From a virus (lineage: Duplodnaviria; Caudoviricetes), in IMG/VR virus record IMGVR_UViG_3300033463_000054, positions 1 through 64,000 of that record: a DNA stretch of 64,000 nt, one strand, 5' to 3'. Below are positions 5,207 through 30,840 of this stretch, piece by piece; the first letter of the stretch is position 1, and each line of letters starts with the position of its first letter. The translations under genes were made by a program, and so were the position numbers. The notes beneath the pieces were generated by a model. The model was not told the origin of the DNA and made no database searches. It saw only the letters and a program-made list of their open reading frames with translations.

Positions 5207-5797
5207 TCAATCGGGAAAGGGATTGTCTCTGTCGTCATCCTCATAATCGAGATCTTTGAACTTATACGCAAATGCATCCTCAGGAATATCCTGATAAACA
5301 TACATGGTATTAATCCAAAGCTGGTACTTACCATTATTCTTCTTCTCTCTACCACGACCGAGAACCACGTCGATACCGCGAACATGCATATCATCGATAA
5401 TACCGACAGTCTCTTCAGTGAGATCAACAGGACGCTTCTTGGGAGCTACGAGCTTAACTATGGTCTTCGAACCGAAAGTAAGCTTGATCTTTGTAATATA
5501 AACAGGATCCGCTACATCGATATCGTCCTTGGGCGTAGTCTCCCACATATCGATCTCGTACTGCTTAAATACATCGACCATGTCCTTAGGAACAGTGATG
5601 TTACAGAACCTCTCGTCAGTCTTAAATTCACGACCAACCTTAGGCTTTATAACTCTTGTCTCGCCTGCAAAGTTACGATTGTACTTATCCTCAGGACCAT
5701 GTCTTTCCCTAGGATTGGCTCTCATTTCGACGTCGTTGAGAACAAAAGTCACATAGCCATTGTTCTCGTAAAAACTATTCTCTGGCATAAATATCAA
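5207..5797 (-). CDS. putative single-stranded DNA-binding protein
   Basis: RNFAGE motif, acidic C-terminal tail ending DDDRDNPFPD, close to the polymerase gene. Confidence 0.6.
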   Translation of the reverse strand: MIFMPENSFYENNGYVTFVLNDVEMRANPRERHGPEDKYNRNFAGETRVIKPKVGREFKTDERFCNITVPKDMVDVFKQYEIDMWETTPKDDIDVADPVYITKIKLTFGSKTIVKLVAPKKRPVDLTEETVGIIDDMHVRGIDVVLGRGREKKNNGKYQLWINTMYVYQDIPEDAFAYKFKDLDYEDDDRDNPFPD

Positions 5798-5985
5798 GCC
5801 TCCTCGACGTCTGTGTCACCGTCAACAGTGTCGAGAGCAGGAGTCTCCTCTATCTCTGTCTCGATGAGTTCAACGCCGTCTGCCTCAGCGGTTCTCTTCT
5901 CGACCTCACGACCGATAAAATATCCAGCTGTGCCACCAACTGCTGTTCCGATTGCTGCTCCAATGATTGCCTTTGATACTTTCAT
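5794..5985 (-). CDS. small membrane-anchored acidic protein
   Basis: N-terminal GxxxG hydrophobic helix, acidic tail, AGGAGG RBS. Confidence 0.7.
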   Translation of the reverse strand: MKVSKAIIGAAIGTAVGGTAGYFIGREVEKRTAEADGVELIETEIEETPALDTVDGDTDVEEA

Positions 5986-6033
5986 TTTGAAAGTCCTCCT
6001 TATAAAAAATTTTTAATAAAAAATATAAAGACA

Positions 6034-6117
6034 AAGGTAAAATGGGATTCGAACCCATAAGCTCCGAATTTTCATATAAGTTCTGATTCGGCGTTTTCAC
6101 CGTTAAACTATTTACAT
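6034..6117 (-). tRNA. tRNA-like RNA with expanded (18-nt) anticodon loop; identity unassignable, no encoded CCA
   Basis: acceptor ATGTAAA/TTTACCT (one mismatch), T8A9, D arm GTTT-AACGGTGA-AAAC, anticodon stem CCGAA/TTCGG, variable AGCTT, T arm ATGGG-TTCGAAT-CCCAT. Confidence 0.7.
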
Positions 6118-6123
6118 TTATCT

Positions 6124-6150
6124 CCATATAAGCGTATGGTTTAATTGCGA
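6124..6150 (-). promoter_or_regulatory. 27-bp promoter-like motif immediately upstream of the tRNA-like RNA
   Basis: TCGCA-ATTAA-ACCAT-ACGC-TTATATGG ending 6 nt before the tRNA-like 5' end. Confidence 0.7.
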
Positions 6151-6153
6151 ATA

Positions 6154-9100
6154 TCAAAACGGTAATCCGTCATCATCCGCAAAGAAATCGCCATATTGGG
6201 TAATGTTTTCATATGCGTCGTCAACAAGCTGTCTATAATACGAAATATCAATGATGTCTTCGCCTTTATCCTTAAGAGCCTTGACTGATTCGCTATCAAG
6301 CCAACGATAATCCTTAGTTCCAGCAGCAAACGCATAACCCTCATCCGTCTTACGAACAAGTTTACCGCCACCACGAGTAACTGGTATGAACAAACCAACA
6401 CGACCAATGAACCTATAATCGTGACCTTTCTCGATTTCTGCGTTAAGAATATCAATTTCCTTAAGTATTTCCTTTTCAGACATGCCACGATACTTGACCG
6501 GCAGACTCGAAATTGCTACATCGGGAAGATTCATCTTATTAAGAGCAGCCTTAGCCTTACCGAGTTCTTTCTCCTGCTCTGATACGTCAGGAAGTGTTTC
6601 GTTCATATCCAAATATAAAGAAGTGTTCACGTTGACTGTAACGCCAAGATCATAGAAGTCAATATCCTCATGACTAAAGAGAGTCTTAAATACATAAGGA
6701 ACGTCGAACTCTTTACCTGTAGCTGTCCAACCACCATGTTTCTCATACTTCTTGGAATTGTCTTTAGGAATATAGCCATAATAATCCTGACACTTAGCAG
6801 GGTCTAAATATCTAGCAATATATACTGCGTTGTTGACAAGAGCCATCTTCTCATATGTTGCCTCATGCTCGAACGTATACCCATAAAGCTTACCGTAATC
6901 GTTCACAAACTGGATGATTTCACGGTTTGCATTAGGTATTTTGATCGAGTCTGTCTTTATATGAGCCACAGTAAACCCACGAGCCTGAACTTCATGTTTG
7001 AGATTCACCATGAACAGAGCTCCACGCTTAGCGACAATGTTATCGATGTTACGCGGATCCTTAAACTGGTTCTTGAACTTAGCAGATGTTAACCCATATA
7101 CAGAGTTAATAGGTATTTTGAGCGCAGACGAAAGTGCTTCAGCCTCTTCTTCAGACTCGAGATACTTAGCGAGTTTACCATCAAACATATTACGTACTTT
7201 ATCATACTCTTTATGTTTAATGTATATACGTACATCAAGAAGATCAACAAATCTCTTAGTGTAAATATCGCCAAACAAATTCTCGGCTTTAATAGAATGA
7301 GGATGCATTGACGCAATATCAAGCAGAGCTACATTATAGTGAATACCCGGTTCAGCATAAACGTAACCGCCTTCGCCTATGAGCTCGCCTCGATACCACG
7401 ACTCCCATACGCCTTTCTCGCTCTTAGAATATGTATAACCCGGGAATACCGGTTTGTGGTCTTTAAATACAGTATAGTTCCAATCACAATCCATATTAGG
7501 AACGTCCTCAAGAATATCATTGACATCTTTAATAGGTATCCCCATGAAACGATAATTGAACTGTGATTGAGGATCTTTATTGCCACCAAATATAATTCTC
7601 GTAGTATGCTGATTGTTGGTGTCATTTACAGTCAATCCAGACAAGTCAGCAAGTATTTCTCTGGCCTTAAAGTCAGAATATCTTTCATTAAATACAGCTT
7701 CTGTTGCAATAACATCGTTATCACAATATTCAGCAACGGTGTCCCATAAAGATTCGGGTACAGGCTTATCCCACGGAAGATTAAGCTCTACGTGATGTAT
7801 ACCAAGCTCAATCTCCCATTTCTTAAGAGACTGTTTCTTAGAACAGAAATCATAAACATCTGTATAAGATATGTTATATGCATCCGAGAAGAAACAATCT
7901 TTATCACCTTTAGTTATTATTCGCTGAGATAATTCATATAACGCTTCATTAGAATATCCCATCAGTCTAGCGTAAATAAGATGGTTATCATACTTACGAC
8001 AATTGAAACCTACGAGCTTAAACTTAAGCAAGTTTTCAATATCAACTGGTCTAGGATTGATCATGCGTATTACTGGATTGTCTCCAGCTTTCTTGTAGTT
8101 AACAAGAAACAAATTAGGAAACACTTCTATATCGAAGAATACCAAATCGCCGTCTTGAACTTTTGCATCGGAAATATCGTCCGACTTAAATTTCATTTTG
8201 AGCGCTTTCTTTAAGCATCCTTCTGCCTGATGCGTAGAACCAGCAGCAAATGCACATACGTCATCACGAAGATCAGTAACGTCATACACAATGCCTGACC
8301 TATACGCCTCTTCAAGTGTTTCAAATATAAAGTTAATATTACTGGTCGTGTCAGGATGAACTTCTTTAGCGAGACAGCGTGCTATACGTCGTCTGAGTTG
8401 TCGTTCGTTCTGAATGCGGAAATCTTCCACGGGTCTCACTCCTTTCAGTGGTAATCCGCTCGATATGGTTGCCACTGGAATATCATTGCAAAGTGTGAGT
8501 TTCCTTCTCAAAGATTGTTTCCCTATAAAGACTTTAACTTCAACACCCTCATCATAAATTCTACTGAGATCATCAACGTTTCCAGAATATAAATAATGAA
8601 GATGCAGACCTCCACCAGATTTACTAGTTTCGGCATATGTCTTAGGAAACTTATTAGCAGCTTTCAAATTTAGTTCGAGTGACTTGTTTCCATCTTTGTC
8701 ACGAATATCAAAGTCAATGACTATGTGATTCTCTGGTACTCGAACGTAATGAAGCTCTTTAGTATTAATGTCTTTGAGTTTAGTCTTCACCTTACTCCAC
8801 GCAGACAATGGCTTTTCATCATCTGTGGTGTATTGTGCTGGACATTCCGCCAGTAAAATATCAATTAGAGACGATTGCTCTTTAAGGTCTAGCCATGTAG
8901 TTAAATTCTTACGAACAGGAACAGTCTTCTTAACATCATTCTTTTCGAGTTTTGATGCTTTGAAACCCCGATAAAGTTTTCTGACATGCGTCCCATCCGG
9001 TAAATATGTACTTTCCACAACTTCGTCAAAGTAATTAGCAAGTTCTTCTTTAAATATCCTTAGAGGTAAAGTATGCATATTTGCATCGTCGCAATAATTC

Positions 9101-10233
9101 TTATATGTTTCCCATGCAGACTTAAGCGTAACTCCTTCATCTCTATTAAGTTCAAATATCCTGTCCTCAATAAAGTTATAGAAGTCGTTTGTTGCGCTAA
9201 GCATATTCACTGGGACATACGTATCGTAATAATTAGGATTCTCTACGAAAATATCAAGACAATGTTTTGCTATCTTACCAAGTTCAAACTTGATTTGAGA
9301 CAACAGTCTGAAGTATTCGTTATGAGACACCAAATTACCAGTAGGTGAAATATCAATTAATCGTCTAAGAAGACCTGACTTAGCATCAGTAATCTTTACA
9401 GGTTCGTTTGTCGCTATGATAAGAAGAGAATGAAATACGTTTGAATACGTTCTCTTAAACTTCTCGTCTACCTGTATCGGCTCGTGCGAGACTATACGAT
9501 TAAGACGAGTGTTATCTTCTATCTTATTAAGTTTACCCTCATGATCGATCGCTACTAAAGGATTTTGAGCAAATGCCTCAAGAGCAAATCGATCGGATGC
9601 TGAACCAAGATTCTTTGCACTAAAATCGTGACAATATCCGTCAAAGAGCCAACCAATAATATTAATAATAGTAGACTTACCCGTACCTGATGAACCATAG
9701 AACACAGCGAACTTTTGTAACGTTCTACTGTCACCAGATACGATGGAACCAATAATCCACTCAATTTTATGTTTCTCTTCTGGAGAATATAAAGTGTTAA
9801 CCAGAGAGTTCCATGCTTCAGGTTCGCCATCTGCAAGTGAGTATGACAGTCTTTTAGTGGCATAATCGCTCCTCTTGACTTCAGCATCAGCAAATATCAA
9901 TGTTTCATCCAGATTGTGAAAACTATCACGAATCTGCTTCTGACAATACTTATGCCATTTGTCAATAACACCGCTATCGCCATCCCACATGTATCTAATT
10001 ACAACATTATTAGTTGACTCCTTATACTTTTCGGCGAAAATATCAATCTCGCGATCAATCAGACGAGTTACATCATCCTCATCAGTCGACCATAAGCCCT
10101 TATCTTCACACCAAATAGCGTAGAAATCGCCACCTTTTACCATGAGGTCCTTAGACTTCTTTACTATAAACTTAGGATATATTTCTATACCTGTTTTAGT
10201 AGTAACCATGCATACCTTCATGAAATCAAGCAC
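6154..10233 (-). CDS. fused SF3 (D5-like) helicase / primase / family B DNA polymerase
   Basis: Walker A YGSSGTGKS; prim-pol-like VIDFD...SKSGGGLHLHY; exonuclease VFFDIEV...GFNCRKYD; PolB motifs LLDIASMHP, KIPINSVYG, IKTDS. Confidence 0.85.
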   Translation of the reverse strand: MLDFMKVCMVTTKTGIEIYPKFIVKKSKDLMVKGGDFYAIWCEDKGLWSTDEDDVTRLIDREIDIFAEKYKESTNNVVIRYMWDGDSGVIDKWHKYCQKQIRDSFHNLDETLIFADAEVKRSDYATKRLSYSLADGEPEAWNSLVNTLYSPEEKHKIEWIIGSIVSGDSRTLQKFAVFYGSSGTGKSTIINIIGWLFDGYCHDFSAKNLGSASDRFALEAFAQNPLVAIDHEGKLNKIEDNTRLNRIVSHEPIQVDEKFKRTYSNVFHSLLIIATNEPVKITDAKSGLLRRLIDISPTGNLVSHNEYFRLLSQIKFELGKIAKHCLDIFVENPNYYDTYVPVNMLSATNDFYNFIEDRIFELNRDEGVTLKSAWETYKNYCDDANMHTLPLRIFKEELANYFDEVVESTYLPDGTHVRKLYRGFKASKLEKNDVKKTVPVRKNLTTWLDLKEQSSLIDILLAECPAQYTTDDEKPLSAWSKVKTKLKDINTKELHYVRVPENHIVIDFDIRDKDGNKSLELNLKAANKFPKTYAETSKSGGGLHLHYLYSGNVDDLSRIYDEGVEVKVFIGKQSLRRKLTLCNDIPVATISSGLPLKGVRPVEDFRIQNERQLRRRIARCLAKEVHPDTTSNINFIFETLEEAYRSGIVYDVTDLRDDVCAFAAGSTHQAEGCLKKALKMKFKSDDISDAKVQDGDLVFFDIEVFPNLFLVNYKKAGDNPVIRMINPRPVDIENLLKFKLVGFNCRKYDNHLIYARLMGYSNEALYELSQRIITKGDKDCFFSDAYNISYTDVYDFCSKKQSLKKWEIELGIHHVELNLPWDKPVPESLWDTVAEYCDNDVIATEAVFNERYSDFKAREILADLSGLTVNDTNNQHTTRIIFGGNKDPQSQFNYRFMGIPIKDVNDILEDVPNMDCDWNYTVFKDHKPVFPGYTYSKSEKGVWESWYRGELIGEGGYVYAEPGIHYNVALLDIASMHPHSIKAENLFGDIYTKRFVDLLDVRIYIKHKEYDKVRNMFDGKLAKYLESEEEAEALSSALKIPINSVYGLTSAKFKNQFKDPRNIDNIVAKRGALFMVNLKHEVQARGFTVAHIKTDSIKIPNANREIIQFVNDYGKLYGYTFEHEATYEKMALVNNAVYIARYLDPAKCQDYYGYIPKDNSKKYEKHGGWTATGKEFDVPYVFKTLFSHEDIDFYDLGVTVNVNTSLYLDMNETLPDVSEQEKELGKAKAALNKMNLPDVAISSLPVKYRGMSEKEILKEIDILNAEIEKGHDYRFIGRVGLFIPVTRGGGKLVRKTDEGYAFAAGTKDYRWLDSESVKALKDKGEDIIDISYYRQLVDDAYENITQYGDFFADDDGLPF

Positions 10234-18237: not shown

Positions 18238-18305
18238 TCCTTAAGTTATTATTTGGAATTAGTCTTCCATATAAGGCGATGTATAATTTGCGGAGACTAT
18301 CGACA

Positions 18306-18512
18306 TCACATAATGAAATGATCGCCGTCTCGACTATACATAATATCGGTAGGCGGATCTTTCTTAACTGCTTTATAGTATGCAGGTCGTAGTGTATTAT
18401 ATATAGTATAATATACGTCTATGGACTTGCACACAGCACCACTAAGAGAATCTAAGAATAGATTAAATAGTTTCTTACCCATTTTGAGCAATCTCCTTTC
18501 GTGTACATTCAA
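18306..18512 (-). CDS. hypothetical protein
   Basis: 68-aa ORF; start uncertain, weak RBS. Confidence 0.4.
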   Translation of the reverse strand: MNVHERRLLKMGKKLFNLFLDSLSGAVCKSIDVYYTIYNTLRPAYYKAVKKDPPTDIMYSRDGDHFIM

Positions 18513-18612
18513 AGAACAAAACAGAGTGTGTTTGCTAGCTTCACTCTGCTTCGTCTGGAAGAATAAGAGGCTCTCATTTGAGCCCCTTACTCTCTCTAGG
18601 TAATATCTTTAA

Positions 18613-18933
18613 TTACTTTCCGCCGTGGAATACTTTGGTAAAGCCACTAAAGACAGATCTACTAATGTTACTTGTCAGATTGCCGGTCTTCTCAAAGTTG
18701 AGACAGGTTACACCCATTCCGACTCCAGCTACTATTTTACCGACGCCCAGAACAATATTAGCTGCATCGTTGCCTCTACTATTCCTCCTTTCACCTCTTA
18801 TTTTGAGCTGAGCTTCGATAATTTTCGCATCGTTGTCGTCGATTGGGGTATCCCAGTCATCGAGCTTTGCGATTGCCCTGCGTTCTGCCGCATTCTCAAT
18901 AGTATATCTTTTCTTGTGTCGTCTTCTACCCAT
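18613..18933 (-). CDS. cassette-encoded hypothetical protein
   Basis: 106 aa, AAGGAGG RBS, motif at 18973, hairpin near 18563-18597. Confidence 0.75.
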   Translation of the reverse strand: MGRRRHKKRYTIENAAERRAIAKLDDWDTPIDDNDAKIIEAQLKIRGERRNSRGNDAANIVLGVGKIVAGVGMGVTCLNFEKTGNLTSNISRSVFSGFTKVFHGGK

Positions 18934-19001
18934 AGTAGATTCCTCCTTGAAAATATAAATTTGGATATTACTCCATATAAGCCGATGTATCTTTTGCGAG
19001 G

Positions 19002-19232
19002 TTATTTCCTTCTCACTCGTAATATCACGATACCTTTCTTTTCTATAGACTTCGGCGAATCTATTTCTAGAAAGAAATACGGACCTTCTTTGTTTTCGTC
19101 GTATCGAACTTGAATATCGCCATCGAATTTAAACGCTAACACTAACACTGTTATTATTAGAAATAGTGCTACCATGAAACCTATTAATGCTCCGACTATA
19201 AGAGCACCATTCATTTTGATCATTCCTTTCAA
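19002..19232 (-). CDS. small single-TM protein
   Basis: long hydrophobic N-terminal helix. Confidence 0.65.
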   Translation of the reverse strand: MKGMIKMNGALIVGALIGFMVALFLIITVLVLAFKFDGDIQVRYDENKEGPYFFLEIDSPKSIEKKGIVILRVRRK

Positions 19233-19486
19233 GCAATCTCTTTAACTATATACTTCTTATACATCGGGATCTTCTCTATTGTCTTCGCGAGAGTCTTATT
19301 ATTTCGCCAACCCTTGAACTGTCTGAGCTCACCTTCGCTACGACCATACTTAAACCAGTCATATACTCCGTCGGTGTAGTTCTGACTGAACATATAAAAC
19401 TCCTTGCCGTTGCGTGAATAATAGAAATCGATCAGCCAGTTGTCGTTGTCCTTGGTGTTCTTTCTTACTACAAACTTTTCTCTCAT
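19229..19486 (-). CDS. hypothetical protein
   Basis: 85 aa, AAGGAGG RBS. Confidence 0.7.
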   Translation of the reverse strand: MREKFVVRKNTKDNDNWLIDFYYSRNGKEFYMFSQNYTDGVYDWFKYGRSEGELRQFKGWRNNKTLAKTIEKIPMYKKYIVKEIA

Positions 19487-19608
19487 TTGAAAATTCCTCC
19501 TTAAATATCAAGCGGGCGGTTATTAAAAATATAAGGAAAGGTTGTCGTTGTGTCGTAGGGACACCTTCTACTTCCTTTCCATATAAGCCGATGTAGAAAA
19601 TGCGAAAT

Positions 19609-19952
19609 TATGAACAAATTATGAACAAAAAGTCGTAGAAACAAGTTCTAACCAAATAACCAGTTTTATTTGCCTATTAATATATTTTTTACTTATTTTT
19701 TATTAAAAATACTATTAGGTATATAAAAAAGTGGTTATTTGGTTAAAAAACCCGCAAACGACGTAGGGAAGCCATTTGACGCCAACCACTTTCCATACCA
19801 GTTTTGCCCAAAACCAGTTTTGTTTGAAGTCATTTTTCGCGATCCGCGAATTTTGAGCATTTTTGCAATTTTTACCAAAAATAAAACTGGATTTGGATAG
19901 AAAATTGGATAATTTTCACAAAACTATCACATTCGTTCATAATTTGTTCATA
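19609..19952. other. putative replication origin
   Basis: ORF-free and AT-rich; bounded by perfect 18-bp inverted repeats (19609-19626 / 19935-19952); inner 14-bp inverted repeat (19649-19662 / 19732-19745); several ACCAGTTTT iteron-like copies. Confidence 0.6.
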
Positions 19953-20003
19953 TTTTAAAAATAAAAAGCTAAGAGGCTGTGTAAGCCCCTTAGTCTTGGA
20001 TTT

Positions 20004-20099
20004 TTAGTTCTTTTCAGACTCCTTCAGTTCCTTATATTCTTCTCTTGTCATTACCATTCCGTTATAAACTACATATTCCTTATTTTCGTTATTAGTCAT
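20004..20099 (-). CDS. 31-aa cassette microprotein (not in ORF track)
   Basis: MTNNENKEYVVYNGMVMTREEYKELKESEKN; AAAGGAG RBS; motif at 20164; hairpin near 19970-19995. Confidence 0.65.
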   Translation of the reverse strand: MTNNENKEYVVYNGMVMTREEYKELKESEKN

Positions 20100-20253
20100 A
20101 ATAACAACTCCTTTATAAATATATTAAGACTTGTTAAAGTCTAGAAAACATAACTATTGTTCTCCATATAAGGACATGTATATTTTGCGAGTTGTTTATG
20201 ACTAAATATAAAACAAAAAAGAGAAGAGGCTGTTACACCTCTCCTCAGTTGGG

Positions 20254-20484
20254 TTACTTCTTTCTAAGTTTCTGCCGCTTCTTCTCGATCATCTGATCAA
20301 GAGTGTCTTTGTGATTAACAACTCTAGCTCCGTTAAATCCTGATACTGCTGCGGACCCCACAATATATACAGGGGCCAGAGCAACGTCTAAAGCGGCACT
20401 TGCGCCACCAATAACTGCTCCGCCTACTGCACCTGCAGTGGTCTTTGCTATCTTCTTTATTTTCTTGCTAGTCTTCTTAGTCAT
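20254..20484 (-). CDS. cassette-encoded Gly/Ala-rich membrane peptide
   Basis: 76 aa, basic ends, glycine-zipper-like core; AAAGGAGG RBS. Confidence 0.7.
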   Translation of the reverse strand: MTKKTSKKIKKIAKTTAGAVGGAVIGGASAALDVALAPVYIVGSAAVSGFNGARVVNHKDTLDQMIEKKRQKLRKK

Positions 20485-20700
20485 AATGACTCCTCCTTTA
20501 GATAATTAAAAATTAGTTAGAAACATTAAGTTTCTTCCATATAAGGCGGTGTAATATATGCGAGCATCGATAAATATAAAAGAAAAAAGGAAAGAGAGGG
20601 TTGTTAGCCCTCCCGCTCCTTTTTATGATCTTCCCAACCTTTCTTAATTTTGTTTACTGATATAAAAGAGAAGAGGCTGTTACACCTCTCCTCAATTTAG

Positions 20701-20922
20701 TCAGAACATTCCATCATCCCAATTATCGGGATTCATGAATTTCGCTTCTATTCTAGAATTGTTTGCGGTCGTGAATCCTAATACAGTGTATCTAGCTAGG
20801 GTACCAATACTTTCAAATACACTTTTAATTAAATACTTAAATATCAAGCATACTGAAATGATTAGTCCTGCTAGAAATCCCATAATGTGATCCATTACCC
20901 TTTCTAAAATTTGATTGTTCAT
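20701..20922 (-). CDS. cassette-encoded small membrane protein
   Basis: 73 aa with hydrophobic helix; AAGGAGG RBS. Confidence 0.7.
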   Translation of the reverse strand: MNNQILERVMDHIMGFLAGLIISVCLIFKYLIKSVFESIGTLARYTVLGFTTANNSRIEAKFMNPDNWDDGMF

Positions 20923-21072
20923 TTCATTTCCTCCTTAAATATAAATTTGGAATATTCTTCCGTATAAGGCCATGTATTATATGCGGGCTTGTTTAGTATA
21001 AACGAGATTTATGTATTATATGCGGGCTTGTTCGAGCGAAAAATATAATAGTGTGAAAGAAGAGAGGATATG

Positions 21073-21249
21073 TTAATCCTCATCGTTGTCGATCGACATT
21101 CCTCTCTGCTTGAGAAAGTTAATCAATTCCAAAGTCTTATTCATTGCTTTCTCGAGATCGTTCATCATTTCGACTGTCTTTATTTCGCCAAAATTATTGT
21201 TATTAATTTCTTTAACCTCGGCGATATATTCTCTAGTCATATACGTCAT
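21073..21249 (-). CDS. 58-aa cassette protein (true start MTYMTREY)
   Basis: AAAGGAG RBS before 21249; the longer 21357 start would run through the promoter motif and hairpin; stop TAA lies in the hairpin loop. Confidence 0.7.
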   Translation of the reverse strand: MTYMTREYIAEVKEINNNNFGEIKTVEMMNDLEKAMNKTLELINFLKQRGMSIDNDED

Positions 21250-21343
21250 AGTTATCTCTCCTTTCAAATATAAAATTAGAATCCATTCTCTCTCATATAA
21301 TAGTATGTATAAAATGCGGGTAAATATAAAAGAGAAGAGGCTG

Positions 21344-21439
21344 TTACACCTCTTCATCTCTGAGCCATCCCTCTAAACAGAGAGATATAATTCCTTTAAA
21401 TATCATTGTCGATATAGCTTCTCTAATCTTATTTAACAT
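21344..21439 (-). CDS. 31-aa cassette microprotein (not in ORF track)
   Basis: MLNKIREAISTMIFKGIISLCLEGWLRDEEV; AAGGAGG RBS; stop TAA is in the hairpin loop. Confidence 0.65.
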   Translation of the reverse strand: MLNKIREAISTMIFKGIISLCLEGWLRDEEV

Positions 21440-21516
21440 AAAAATTCCTCCTTTTATTGGTTATGGTCTCCATATAATAGTGTGTATTAATTGCGGGCGA
21501 AAAAGAGAAGAGGATG

Positions 21517-21711
21517 TTACTCCTCGTTCTCTTCGTTAGTTTCTTCCTCATTCCTAAACATATAGCTAGGCGATTTATGTTCTGTCACACATATTAAAAA
21601 TATAACCGTCGTAATTACCAGTATGATTGCGCCTATTGTGCCAAATACAATATTGCCACTAAGCACGCCTAGTATTGATAATACATTCAGTATCATTTCT
21701 TTTATTGTCAT
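21517..21711 (-). CDS. cassette-encoded small membrane protein
   Basis: 64 aa, hydrophobic N-terminal two-thirds, acidic tail; stop TAA in hairpin loop. Confidence 0.7.
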   Translation of the reverse strand: MTIKEMILNVLSILGVLSGNIVFGTIGAIILVITTVIFLICVTEHKSPSYMFRNEEETNEENEE

Positions 21712-21792
21712 AATAAATTCTCCTTTGTTATTAGTTTATTTTATTAGGAATATTCTTCCATATAAGAATATTGAAAATTTGCGAATCGCGAA

Positions 21793-22203
21793 TTAATACA
21801 TTTTAGAATCCAACATCCAGAAAAACTTCCTATACATCTTATAATAAACATTCTTACAGCAAGGAATACCCATTTTGAGCAAAAGGTAATCATACCCGAC
21901 ATCGTGAGTAACGCCATAGAGAATATACTTGCCGAGTGAAGGATCTGTGTCAAATGCAGCCTTCTCTACACGTTCAATCTGACTTAAATAATACTCTCTT
22001 TTCTCCAAAACCCACGAAATATCAGTCTCGGATAATCTCTGTCGCTTACCATGTATCTCGATCATACCACCACGATAACCATCAAGTGACCTGAGAATAT
22101 CACGCCACTCATCGTATTGCAGACACATGTGTTTTAGCTCAAGAAAGCGATGTTTAGATAGCTTATACTCGTTCTTGTTTGAAATATCATTCCTGACTCT
22201 CAT
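21793..22203 (-). CDS. putative transcriptional regulator (RinA/ArpU-like)
   Basis: ELKHMCLQYDEW...IPCCKNVYYKMYRKFFWMLD C-terminal HTH-like pattern. Confidence 0.5.
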   Translation of the reverse strand: MRVRNDISNKNEYKLSKHRFLELKHMCLQYDEWRDILRSLDGYRGGMIEIHGKRQRLSETDISWVLEKREYYLSQIERVEKAAFDTDPSLGKYILYGVTHDVGYDYLLLKMGIPCCKNVYYKMYRKFFWMLDSKMY

Positions 22204-22442
22204 ACCCGCTCTCCCTCCCAGACGTAACCAGTTTCCTCATATAAGGCTTTCGGTGAAATATAATAGTTAATGCGACCTTTCTTACTTGTCATATCGTCGA
22301 GAGAAGTCACTGTCTTACCTCCGCGTGTCGCTATTCCTATTTTGAGATAACCCGAGATGATCCCAGCACGAACCCATGATGGATCTTTACCGTATACTTT
22401 AGCCACCACAGCTATAGGAACTGATCCTCTACTAAATATCAT
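22200..22442 (-). CDS. putative excisionase/Cro-like HTH protein
   Basis: 80 aa, VPIAVVAKVYGKDPSWVRAGI HTH; divergent from the integrase. Confidence 0.55.
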   Translation of the reverse strand: MIFSRGSVPIAVVAKVYGKDPSWVRAGIISGYLKIGIATRGGKTVTSLDDMTSKKGRINYYISPKALYEETGYVWEGERV

Positions 22443-22532
22443 AGTAGTACCTCCTTAAGTTTAGATACTACCTTTATACCACGAAAAATAGTTACCTGAG
22501 TCTCCTAAAAAAAATAAAATACAGTGTAGGAC

Positions 22533-22562
22533 TTGACAAATCATACACCGAAATGATATAAT
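22533..22562 (+). promoter_or_regulatory. consensus sigma-A promoter facing the integrase
   Basis: TTGACA (22533-38), 18-nt spacer, extended -10 TGaTATAAT (22554-62). Confidence 0.7.
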
Positions 22563-22582
22563 AAAAAAAAGAAGAGAGGATG

Positions 22583-22744
22583 TTATTCCTCATCCTCTTC
22601 TTCCTCGGACAGAAGATCCCACATTTTTTGAATCATTTTGTCTCTTTCTTCTAATGTTATAAGTCCACTTACAAAGTCCATTTTAATCTTCGGGATTACA
22701 AATGAATATATATAAAAGTTTCTTATAATTTTTGAAATTTTCAT
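22583..22744 (-). CDS. 53-aa cassette protein with acidic tail (not in ORF track)
   Basis: MKISKIIRNFYIYSFVIPKIKMDFVSGLITLEERDKMIQKMWDLLSEEEEDEE; AAGGAG RBS; motif at 22776; stop in hairpin loop. Confidence 0.7.
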   Translation of the reverse strand: MKISKIIRNFYIYSFVIPKIKMDFVSGLITLEERDKMIQKMWDLLSEEEEDEE

Positions 22745-22833
22745 AAAATCAACTCCTTAAATAGTTAGTTTCTGTCCATATAATAGTATGTAGTTTTTGC
22801 GAATCGCGAAATATAAAGAAAGGATCTGATCAA

Positions 22834-30681: not shown

Positions 30682-30840
30682 CTCTTTTCTGTCTGTTTTT
30701 CAATTTACATCTCATTCTTCAGTTTTCGGTTTTGTTGGAGTTAGTCCCGAGCTTTCGAGTATGATAATACCTACTAACACAGTTTCACCACGATATTTTT
30801 TGCCAAGGGGCAGGGTAAAATCCTAGTCTACAAATAAAAC

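Follow-up and report, generated by a model that had tools for sequence, protein, structure and literature searches.

RNAs that keep the shape of a tRNA and do not decode are well documented in organelles and eukaryotic viruses, and hardly in phages. The t-elements of plant mitochondria are cleaved by RNase P and RNase Z, receive a CCA tail and are not aminoacylated (PMC1920247; 10.1101/2024.09.09.612099). Like the phage unit described here, they derive their fold from tRNA, have lost an intact anticodon region and encode no CCA, and they sit at the 5' or 3' ends of mRNAs with which they are co-transcribed, as we propose for the phage unit. They differ in being organellar, in not lying a fixed few nucleotides behind a promoter and in having no described leader-trailer helix that reaches the 5' end; their cleavage has been demonstrated, whereas that of the phage unit is inferred. 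Terminal tRNA-shaped modules are also excised by RNase P and RNase Z from MALAT1 (mascRNA) and from the tRNA-miRNA transcripts of murid herpesvirus 68, and the small RNA is not aminoacylated; these modules belong to eukaryotic hosts, are made by other polymerases and share no homology with the phage unit. Among phages, the species 1 and 2 RNAs of T4 and the c4 RNAs of P1 and P7 are small, non-decoding RNAs with tRNA-like features that depend on host tRNA processing. Compared by description, they are to our knowledge not promoter-abutting cloverleaves with a variable anticodon arm, and a full-text literature search found no account of promoter-abutting, non-decoding tRNA-like RNAs in phages. 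Annotation pipelines miss such RNAs or mislabel them as odd tRNAs or as "tRNA-Phe with intron". The distinctive traits of the phage unit are its abutment on a promoter and its leader-trailer helix.

The element lies in a 64,000-nt stretch of viral DNA (hereafter the window; positions 1 to 64,000 of the 94,897-bp record IMGVR_UViG_3300033463_000054) from a cattle-gut Clostridia phage. The original prediction, made from the letters of the window, described a promoter-driven tRNA-like RNA with an enlarged anticodon loop. Every feature it named was found in the sequence, and its account needs amending in the strand, since all of them lie on the minus strand (Table 1). The D arm, T arm, 5-nt variable loop and near-perfect acceptor stem are present, as is the 18-nt loop within its stem, and position 73 is not followed by CCA.

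Table 1. Features of the tRNA-like unit and its surroundings in window coordinates, with the anticodon arms of the two closest relatives
Feature	Position	Strand	Description
Upstream gene	6154..10233	-	1359-aa primase/helicase-DNA polymerase fusion; phrog_4210, 1768 bits
Phage-specific promoter motif	6123..6150 (6150->6123)	-	27 bp; TCGCAA 6150-6145, N12, CTTATATG 6132-6125, GG
Predicted purine-rich leader	6118..6125	-	8 nt (GGAGAUAA) from the putative start; pairs with trailer 6033-6026
tRNA-shaped RNA body	6034..6117	-	84 nt; Rfam, model R1, intron-allowed ARAGORN, family covariation
Acceptor stem	6117-6111 with 6041-6035	-	6/7 paired; U2.C71 mismatched
D arm	6108-6093	-	4-bp stem; loop contains GG
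Anticodon arm, window	6091-6087 with 6068-6064	-	5-bp stem CCGAA/TTCGG; loop 18 nt
18-nt "anticodon" loop	6069..6086	-	CTTATATG at 6080-6073, then AAAA; lineage-specific variable region
Variable loop	6063-6059	-	5 nt
T arm	6058-6042	-	canonical T loop
Position 73	6034	-	U73; CCA absent after it
T-rich trailer and AU-rich leader	6001..6033	-	first 8-12 nt pair with the 5' leader, remainder U-rich tract
Ribosome-binding site and 63-aa gene	5794..6000	-	AGGAGG at 6000-5995, gene at 5985-5794; first gene downstream of the unit
Anticodon arm, L132			stem CTAG/CTAG; loop 14 nt
Anticodon arm, L133			stem CAGAC/GTCTG; loop 6 nt

We first scored the body against tRNA models. It matches the Rfam tRNA model RF00005 at 47 bits, against a gathering score of 29 (E-value 6.6e-7 for the whole window and 4e-9 in a local search), is the sole Rfam tRNA match in the entire virus record, and scores 60.3 bits with R1, a covariance model of its own family. 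The tertiary nucleotides G18/G19, T54-C56 and A58 are all present. ARAGORN does not call the element as a tRNA under default settings; with introns allowed, a check that had been suggested from the outset, its call is tRNA-Phe(GAA), and the 11 nt that it sets aside between nucleotides 32 and 33 leave the loop TTGAAAA. Nearest-neighbour folding gives the cloverleaf -7.4 kcal/mol against -15.2 for the minimum free energy (MFE) structure, and energy alone thus does not favour it; what backs the predicted cloverleaf is its match to covariance models and the way its stems co-vary in relatives. The MFE structure of the window RNA pairs the loop insert with the 5' acceptor/D strand, a pairing we rejected because 69% of loop shuffles equal or beat it. 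Descent from tRNA-Phe is not claimed either, as the element, when globally aligned in a crude comparison with 82 phage tRNAs, did not consistently resemble any one isotype. The GAA is not taken as a sign of Phe ancestry because it is only the residue left once 11 nt are deleted.

Like canonical and phage tRNAs (RF00005), the element has a 7-bp acceptor and D, anticodon and T arms, with U8, A14, G18 G19, T54 Psi55 C56 and A58. It differs from them in its 18-nt rather than 7-nt loop, in belonging to a family without a conserved U33 or anticodon, in an AU-rich acceptor that is extended by a -1:73 pair and further pairs, and in abutting a promoter of the phage polymerase; it also lacks the CCA that true tRNAs in related phages encode. 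The features of a decoding loop (7 nt, U33, a 3-nt anticodon and a purine at 37) are not found together in it. With intron-containing tRNAs (archaeal and eukaryal ones with bulge-helix-bulge introns, bacterial ones with group I introns in the anticodon loop) it shares extra nucleotides in the anticodon loop and can be modelled by ARAGORN, but their introns lie at 37/38, whereas its 11-nt insert lies at 32/33 and its orthologues have no exon-joined loop.

The claim that the element has its own promoter was borne out: a copy of the phage motif lies directly ahead of it, beginning 4 nt past the stop codon of the polymerase gene. This motif (TCGCAA-N12-CTTATATG-G/A purine run) has 17 copies in the 94.9-kb genome, all on the minus strand, and a matching arrangement is present in the two closest relatives, L132 and L133. 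A search for sigma-70-type promoters on the minus strand at the element gave no match. Since a purine run follows the TAT(A/T)AT core in every copy, we took the first G after TATAT as the likely start, which would place transcription initiation at about 6125. Minus-strand copies of the promoter were located at 1981, 6149 and 18292-22801 (10 copies) in the window and at 75950-90954 (6 copies) beyond it. Downstream, the T-rich tract reported in the original prediction extends from 6033 to 6001 and runs to AGGAGG and an ATG at 5985; it is highly conserved in L132 and L133, and T arm and T tract together were flagged as terminator-like. The 63-aa gene that follows encodes a glycine-zipper membrane protein (Pfam Gly-zipper_Omp, 28.1 bits). 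This protein has an acidic tail, and its gene is the first after the unit in the window, L132 and L133 alike.

We next looked for relatives, using the 1359-aa polymerase fusion as a marker. This search returned 80 related viral contigs, which share 44-59% identity with it and for the most part measure 55-63 kb, 80 metagenome contigs and 15 contigs binned in Clostridia-type metagenome-assembled genomes (MAGs). Viral records were searched with the Rfam tRNA model and then with R1. The GenBank phage collection held polymerase fragments at 74% identity only and no close relative, and an exact pattern of anticodon stem plus T arm found G045 and unrelated tRNAs among the viral contigs. The hosts are Clostridia-type MAGs, and the phage genes use strong AGGAGG sites. 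The tRNA-like genes of the relatives split into two sharply distinct classes. Class 1 consists of ordinary tRNAs (Met, Leu, Ile) with a GC-rich acceptor, encoded CCA, a 7-nt loop and no adjoining promoter. Class 2, to which the window element belongs, comprises about 30 distinct sequences with an AU-rich acceptor, no CCA and an abnormal anticodon arm. An own promoter had been said to argue against a dead relic, and the two classes strengthen that argument: the CCA-less genes with odd loops sit behind a promoter, a position that canonical tRNAs in these phages do not share.

Class-2 units share a fixed order of family promoter, 2-9 nt purine leader, CCA-less tRNA-shaped RNA and T-rich tract. 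The body starts 2-9 nt past the family promoter core (...TATTATGAG, then the body), with the exception of L107/L108, which have a partial motif only. Downstream of most units a ribosome-binding site and a gene follow within 20-90 nt, and in 13 of 19 cases this gene encodes a DUF6353 membrane protein. A second promoter comes directly after the unit in five cases (L101, L102, L106, L127 and L221). Units are detectable in about 21 of 50 related genomes only, and we therefore regard them as accessory. Their usual site is about 6 kb upstream of the polymerase, ahead of DUF6353; in the window clade the unit instead follows the polymerase. Where relatives have several DUF6353 genes or one, it is mostly the first that comes after the promoter and tRNA-like unit. 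The window carries DUF6353 (PF19880) paralogues at about 17887-17108, 15069-14284 and 13590-12680 on the minus strand, and its DUF6353 site has a promoter at about 18292 and no tRNA-like element. Because the usual site has kept the promoter only, the window unit appears to have been relocated. A second long-loop member, L101/L112 (G045:22389-22478, minus strand), has a 23-25 nt loop on a CCGA/TCGG stem and near-identical promoters on both flanks, making it a self-contained small-RNA cassette.

The search for homologs and covariation that had been proposed as a further check thus yielded about 30 copies with strong covariation in the acceptor, D and T stems. In an alignment of 22 members, 90% of the cells in these stems are paired, compared with 32-50% in a slid-register control. 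Compensatory cells, in which both sides have changed, number 122 against 35 in column shuffles, and none of 500 shuffles reaches the observed value. G18, G53, T54, A58 and C61 are invariant in the family. Evolution has thus conserved the acceptor/T-arm stack and the D/T elbow and has kept the anticodon stem closed, with loop length and sequence left free. As in t-elements, decoding features have been lost while the acceptor/T arm and elbow are kept.

The anticodon arm was compared most directly in the closest relatives by polymerase, the metagenome contigs L132 (80% identity, C-terminus) and L133 (70%). Both have the layout of the window: polymerase stop, promoter, tRNA-like body, T-rich trailer, AGGAGG and glycine-zipper gene. 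The T arm is identical in all three, and acceptor and D stems differ by compensated changes. Their anticodon loops cannot be aligned and hold no common anticodon. Between the window and L132, three anticodon-stem pairs have changed on both sides, as read from the sequences, so that the hairpin is kept but the loop is not. Across the family, the arm is lacking, is a mini-hairpin of 2-4 bp, or carries a loop of 3-8, 14, 18 or 23-25 nt; part of the family has 5-6-bp stems with 3-8 nt loops. It is absent in L107, L103 and L123, where 12-13 nt separate the D and T arms, and almost no member has U33 within a 7-nt loop. Seven members (L103, L123, L104, L124, L107, L109 and L231) are 62-67 nt long, with the anticodon arm a 2-4-bp hairpin or lost and the other arms kept.

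The orthologue comparison indicates that the long loop is neither an assembly oddity of one record nor conserved functional sequence. The original prediction had named a normal 7-nt loop in relatives as what would speak against it; the relatives have none, and long loops recur in independent assemblies (14 nt in L132, 23-25 nt in G045). Judged from these sequences, the 18-nt loop is a lineage-specific expansion, a variable appendage that is neither intron nor anticodon. Of the functions first suggested, a tRNA mimic gains support, since a conserved family keeps the tRNA body without a usable anticodon loop. A decoy against anticodon nucleases or T-box sensing is unlikely in that form, the anticodon loop being the least conserved part; as a decoy tRNA for anticodon nucleases the element was rejected because mimicry of a host anticodon was not found and some members have no such arm at all. 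The same pattern would be compatible with a decoy for factors that recognise the acceptor, T arm or elbow. These results advise caution in reading long-loop tRNA matches in phage genomes as introns or suppressors.

We then examined the sequences that flank the body. The leader, from the putative start G to position -1, pairs with the trailer from position 73 onward. In 24 non-redundant members, 76 of 122 leader-trailer positions form Watson-Crick pairs and 30 of 122 form G-U pairs, against shuffle means of 57.7 and 37.7, and one of 2000 trailer shuffles was as good. Trailer Cs lie opposite leader Gs at 26 of 34 positions where 15 of 30 are expected. The -1:73 pair is G-C in 14, A-U in 9, G-U in 2 and unpaired in 4 of 29 members. 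In most members the run of pairs equals the length of the leader, and in the window 12 consecutive pairs form. The pairing would prolong the acceptor helix to the predicted 5' end of the transcript, and the U-rich tract comes after the helix. When leader and trailer are included in the fold, the MFE structure contains the long helix (z = -1.9). The end of the helix would mark the transcription start, so that for an uncharacterised class of phage-polymerase promoter this site could be predicted from sequence alone.

On balance, we think the element is a member of a conserved phage RNA module that is processed by the host, and neither a decoder nor an intron-bearing tRNA. The comparative evidence establishes a structurally constrained tRNA L-shape with a closed, sequence-free anticodon arm, placed at the start of the transcript predicted from a phage promoter. 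The phage's own RNA polymerase would initiate at about 6125, on the G that follows the TATAT core, and after the 8-nt purine leader the RNA would fold into a canonical tRNA L-shape. Pairing of the leader with the U-rich trailer would carry the acceptor helix to the very 5' end. Host tRNA end-processing enzymes would then, most likely, recognise the RNA by its shape. In Clostridia, the candidates are RNase P on the 5' side, RNase Z on the CCA-less, U-rich 3' side and perhaps the CCA-adding enzyme. The outcome would be the release of a small, stable tRNA-shaped RNA and a defined 5' end for the downstream mRNA, as in t-elements. RNase Z and the CCA-adding enzyme read the acceptor/T arm and elbow, not the anticodon. 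The same is true of RNase P (PMC4919913). We favour end processing because the parts that appear to be under selection, namely the acceptor/T-arm stack, the elbow and a U-rich trailer in place of CCA, match those that these three enzymes read. In Bacillus-type bacteria, moreover, RNase Z cuts CCA-less precursors. Some observations point the other way. Selection for leader-trailer pairing is unexpected if both ends are simply cut off, and fits a role of the uncut form, either in protecting the 5' end or in forming a terminator stem; RNase P also acts less well on a substrate whose leader is fully paired. The five units followed by a second promoter look more like genes for stand-alone small RNAs than like signals for mRNA processing. 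The occurrence of the unit in about 21 of 50 related genomes, as an accessory element, also weighs against the model. End processing, finally, does not account for the exact promoter word in the loop of the window element.

Two alternatives take up these points. The unit may be a stand-alone small RNA that serves as a decoy or sponge for a host or phage factor that recognises the elbow, the T arm or the acceptor end (such as a toxin or defence nuclease that targets tRNA, or a nucleotidyltransferase), so that real tRNAs are protected or abortive infection is blunted. We consider this possible, if unlikely. It draws on the five self-contained cassettes directly before another promoter, on the movement of the unit between genomic positions, on the elbow and T arm being the most tightly conserved parts and on the accessory status of the gene, which is usual for anti-defence genes; the hypervariable or absent anticodon loop nevertheless excludes mimicry of a specific anticodon-nuclease target. 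The unit may also act uncut, as a 5'-terminal structure whose tRNA fold and closing helix protect the triphosphate 5' end from decay by RppH and RNase J1, and, with the U tract, it may add a leaky promoter-proximal terminator that tunes the downstream gene. This agrees with a helix that reaches the predicted first nucleotide in most members, with the excess of trailer Cs opposite leader Gs, with the long helix in the MFE structure, and with the U-rich tract behind it and the terminator-like T arm and T tract. A simple hairpin would suffice for such a role, however, leaving G18/G19, T54, C56, A58 and the whole L-shape unexplained, and a branched closing helix, rich in AU and GU pairs, is ill suited to intrinsic termination. 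We rate the uncut structure as rather improbable.

The remaining alternatives deny the element a function in its present form or make it a decoder. A decaying tRNA pseudogene, a one-off insertion or an assembly error, functionless in each case, would account for the weak AU-rich body, the acceptor mismatch and the poor cloverleaf energy. No near-identical genome was found among GenBank phages or viral contigs for comparison of assemblies, and the promoter word in the loop was perhaps gained by local copying. Decay is contradicted by the covariation, with compensatory changes in all four stems in the window clade and the family, and by the conserved place behind the promoter, and long loops appear in three independent assemblies (window, L132 and G045); we judge this explanation very improbable. 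A genuine tRNA-Phe(GAA) with an 11-nt intron between nucleotides 32 and 33, spliced to a working decoder, is the reading that the ARAGORN call invites, as removal of the 11 nt leaves a textbook U-U-GAA-A-A loop. The mini-intron found no support in the orthologues, whose loops of 14 and 6 nt yield no shared 7-nt loop, nor in the family, with loops from 0 to 25 nt. The insert is at a non-canonical position, and its 11 nt could accommodate neither a bulge-helix-bulge motif nor the core of a group I ribozyme; the predicted anticodon arm has a 5-bp stem with a 3-bp extension, a 9-nt loop and no double bulge, and no Rfam intron family was found at the element. A search of the 94.9-kb phage genome for splicing and ligase genes left PF01974, PF01139 and PF09414 unmatched, so that RtcB, a splicing endonuclease (EndA) and an Rnl2-type ligase are absent from it, and we know of no tRNA-splicing endonuclease in the bacterial hosts. 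The missing splicing enzyme and the shortness of the insert leave the mini-intron unsupported. The U2.C71 mismatch, U73, the lack of CCA and a body that in a crude comparison fits no isotype add to this, and we hold an intron-bearing tRNA-Phe to be barely credible.

What a phage gains from a non-decoding tRNA shape is now testable: the shape may punctuate the transcript, control its 5' end or act as a decoy for host factors that bind tRNA. The case provides a conserved architecture, the covariance model R1 and about 30 examples from gut and rumen Clostridia phages.

The original prediction further pointed out that the loop contains the same word as the promoter core, and the two copies of CTTATATG are indeed identical. 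The window contains 11 copies of this 8-mer, where 3.8 +/- 1.7 would be expected, and the chance of its falling inside an 18-nt loop is about 3e-4, for a word chosen after being seen. The AAAA after it resembles the purine run at a start, and the genomic promoter at 81100 reads CTTATATGAAAG. The L133 loop has no copy of the promoter core, though the core of its promoter equals that of the window; no promoter resemblance was found in the loops of L132 and L133, and the G045 loop shows a weak, gapped resemblance only, judged by eye. The word may stem from a local copying event in a freely varying region; less likely than that, it is a payload mimicking the melted strand of the promoter. The tRNA shape would then be a scaffold with a swappable anticodon-arm payload, here a single-stranded RNA copy of the initiation region (about -7 to +5). 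Such a copy could regulate phage transcription by feedback, through binding to the phage RNA polymerase or to a factor that recognises the promoter. 6S RNA, which acts on the host enzyme, offers a loose parallel. The feature is absent from both orthologues and leaves only a faint echo in G045, which weakens this idea, and we find it very doubtful. A complete internal promoter in the loop was rejected, since neither TCGCAA nor TACA lies upstream at the right spacing, and so was an antisense action on phage mRNA, since pairing with the one plus-strand copy of the 8-mer that was found, at 9100, does not extend beyond 8 bp.

Two further roles for the locus were considered. An attP or integration site fits poorly, as the unit is a complete AU-rich cloverleaf and not a host-like 3' half. 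As the primer of a replication origin the unit is at most distantly conceivable: the cumulative GC skew declines steadily along the whole window and never turns, and an AU-rich leader is found behind each of the promoters.

Other unusual tRNA-like genes and RNAs were seen along the way. On an unrelated GC-rich viral contig of 53 kb (L118:4236-4342, minus strand; IMGVR_UViG_3300036790_000232), a tRNA-like gene with a greatly enlarged anticodon/variable region adjoins a second odd, tRNA-Gly-like gene. A relative with several canonical tRNAs (G012) also has a weak ARAGORN "tRNA-Stop(TTA)" with a poor acceptor stem (L087:835-907, minus strand), which could be a suppressor-like or degenerate gene. 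Within the window itself, positions 30723-30817 on the minus strand match the Rfam RT-17 RNA at 45.4 bits, against a gathering score of 40.4.
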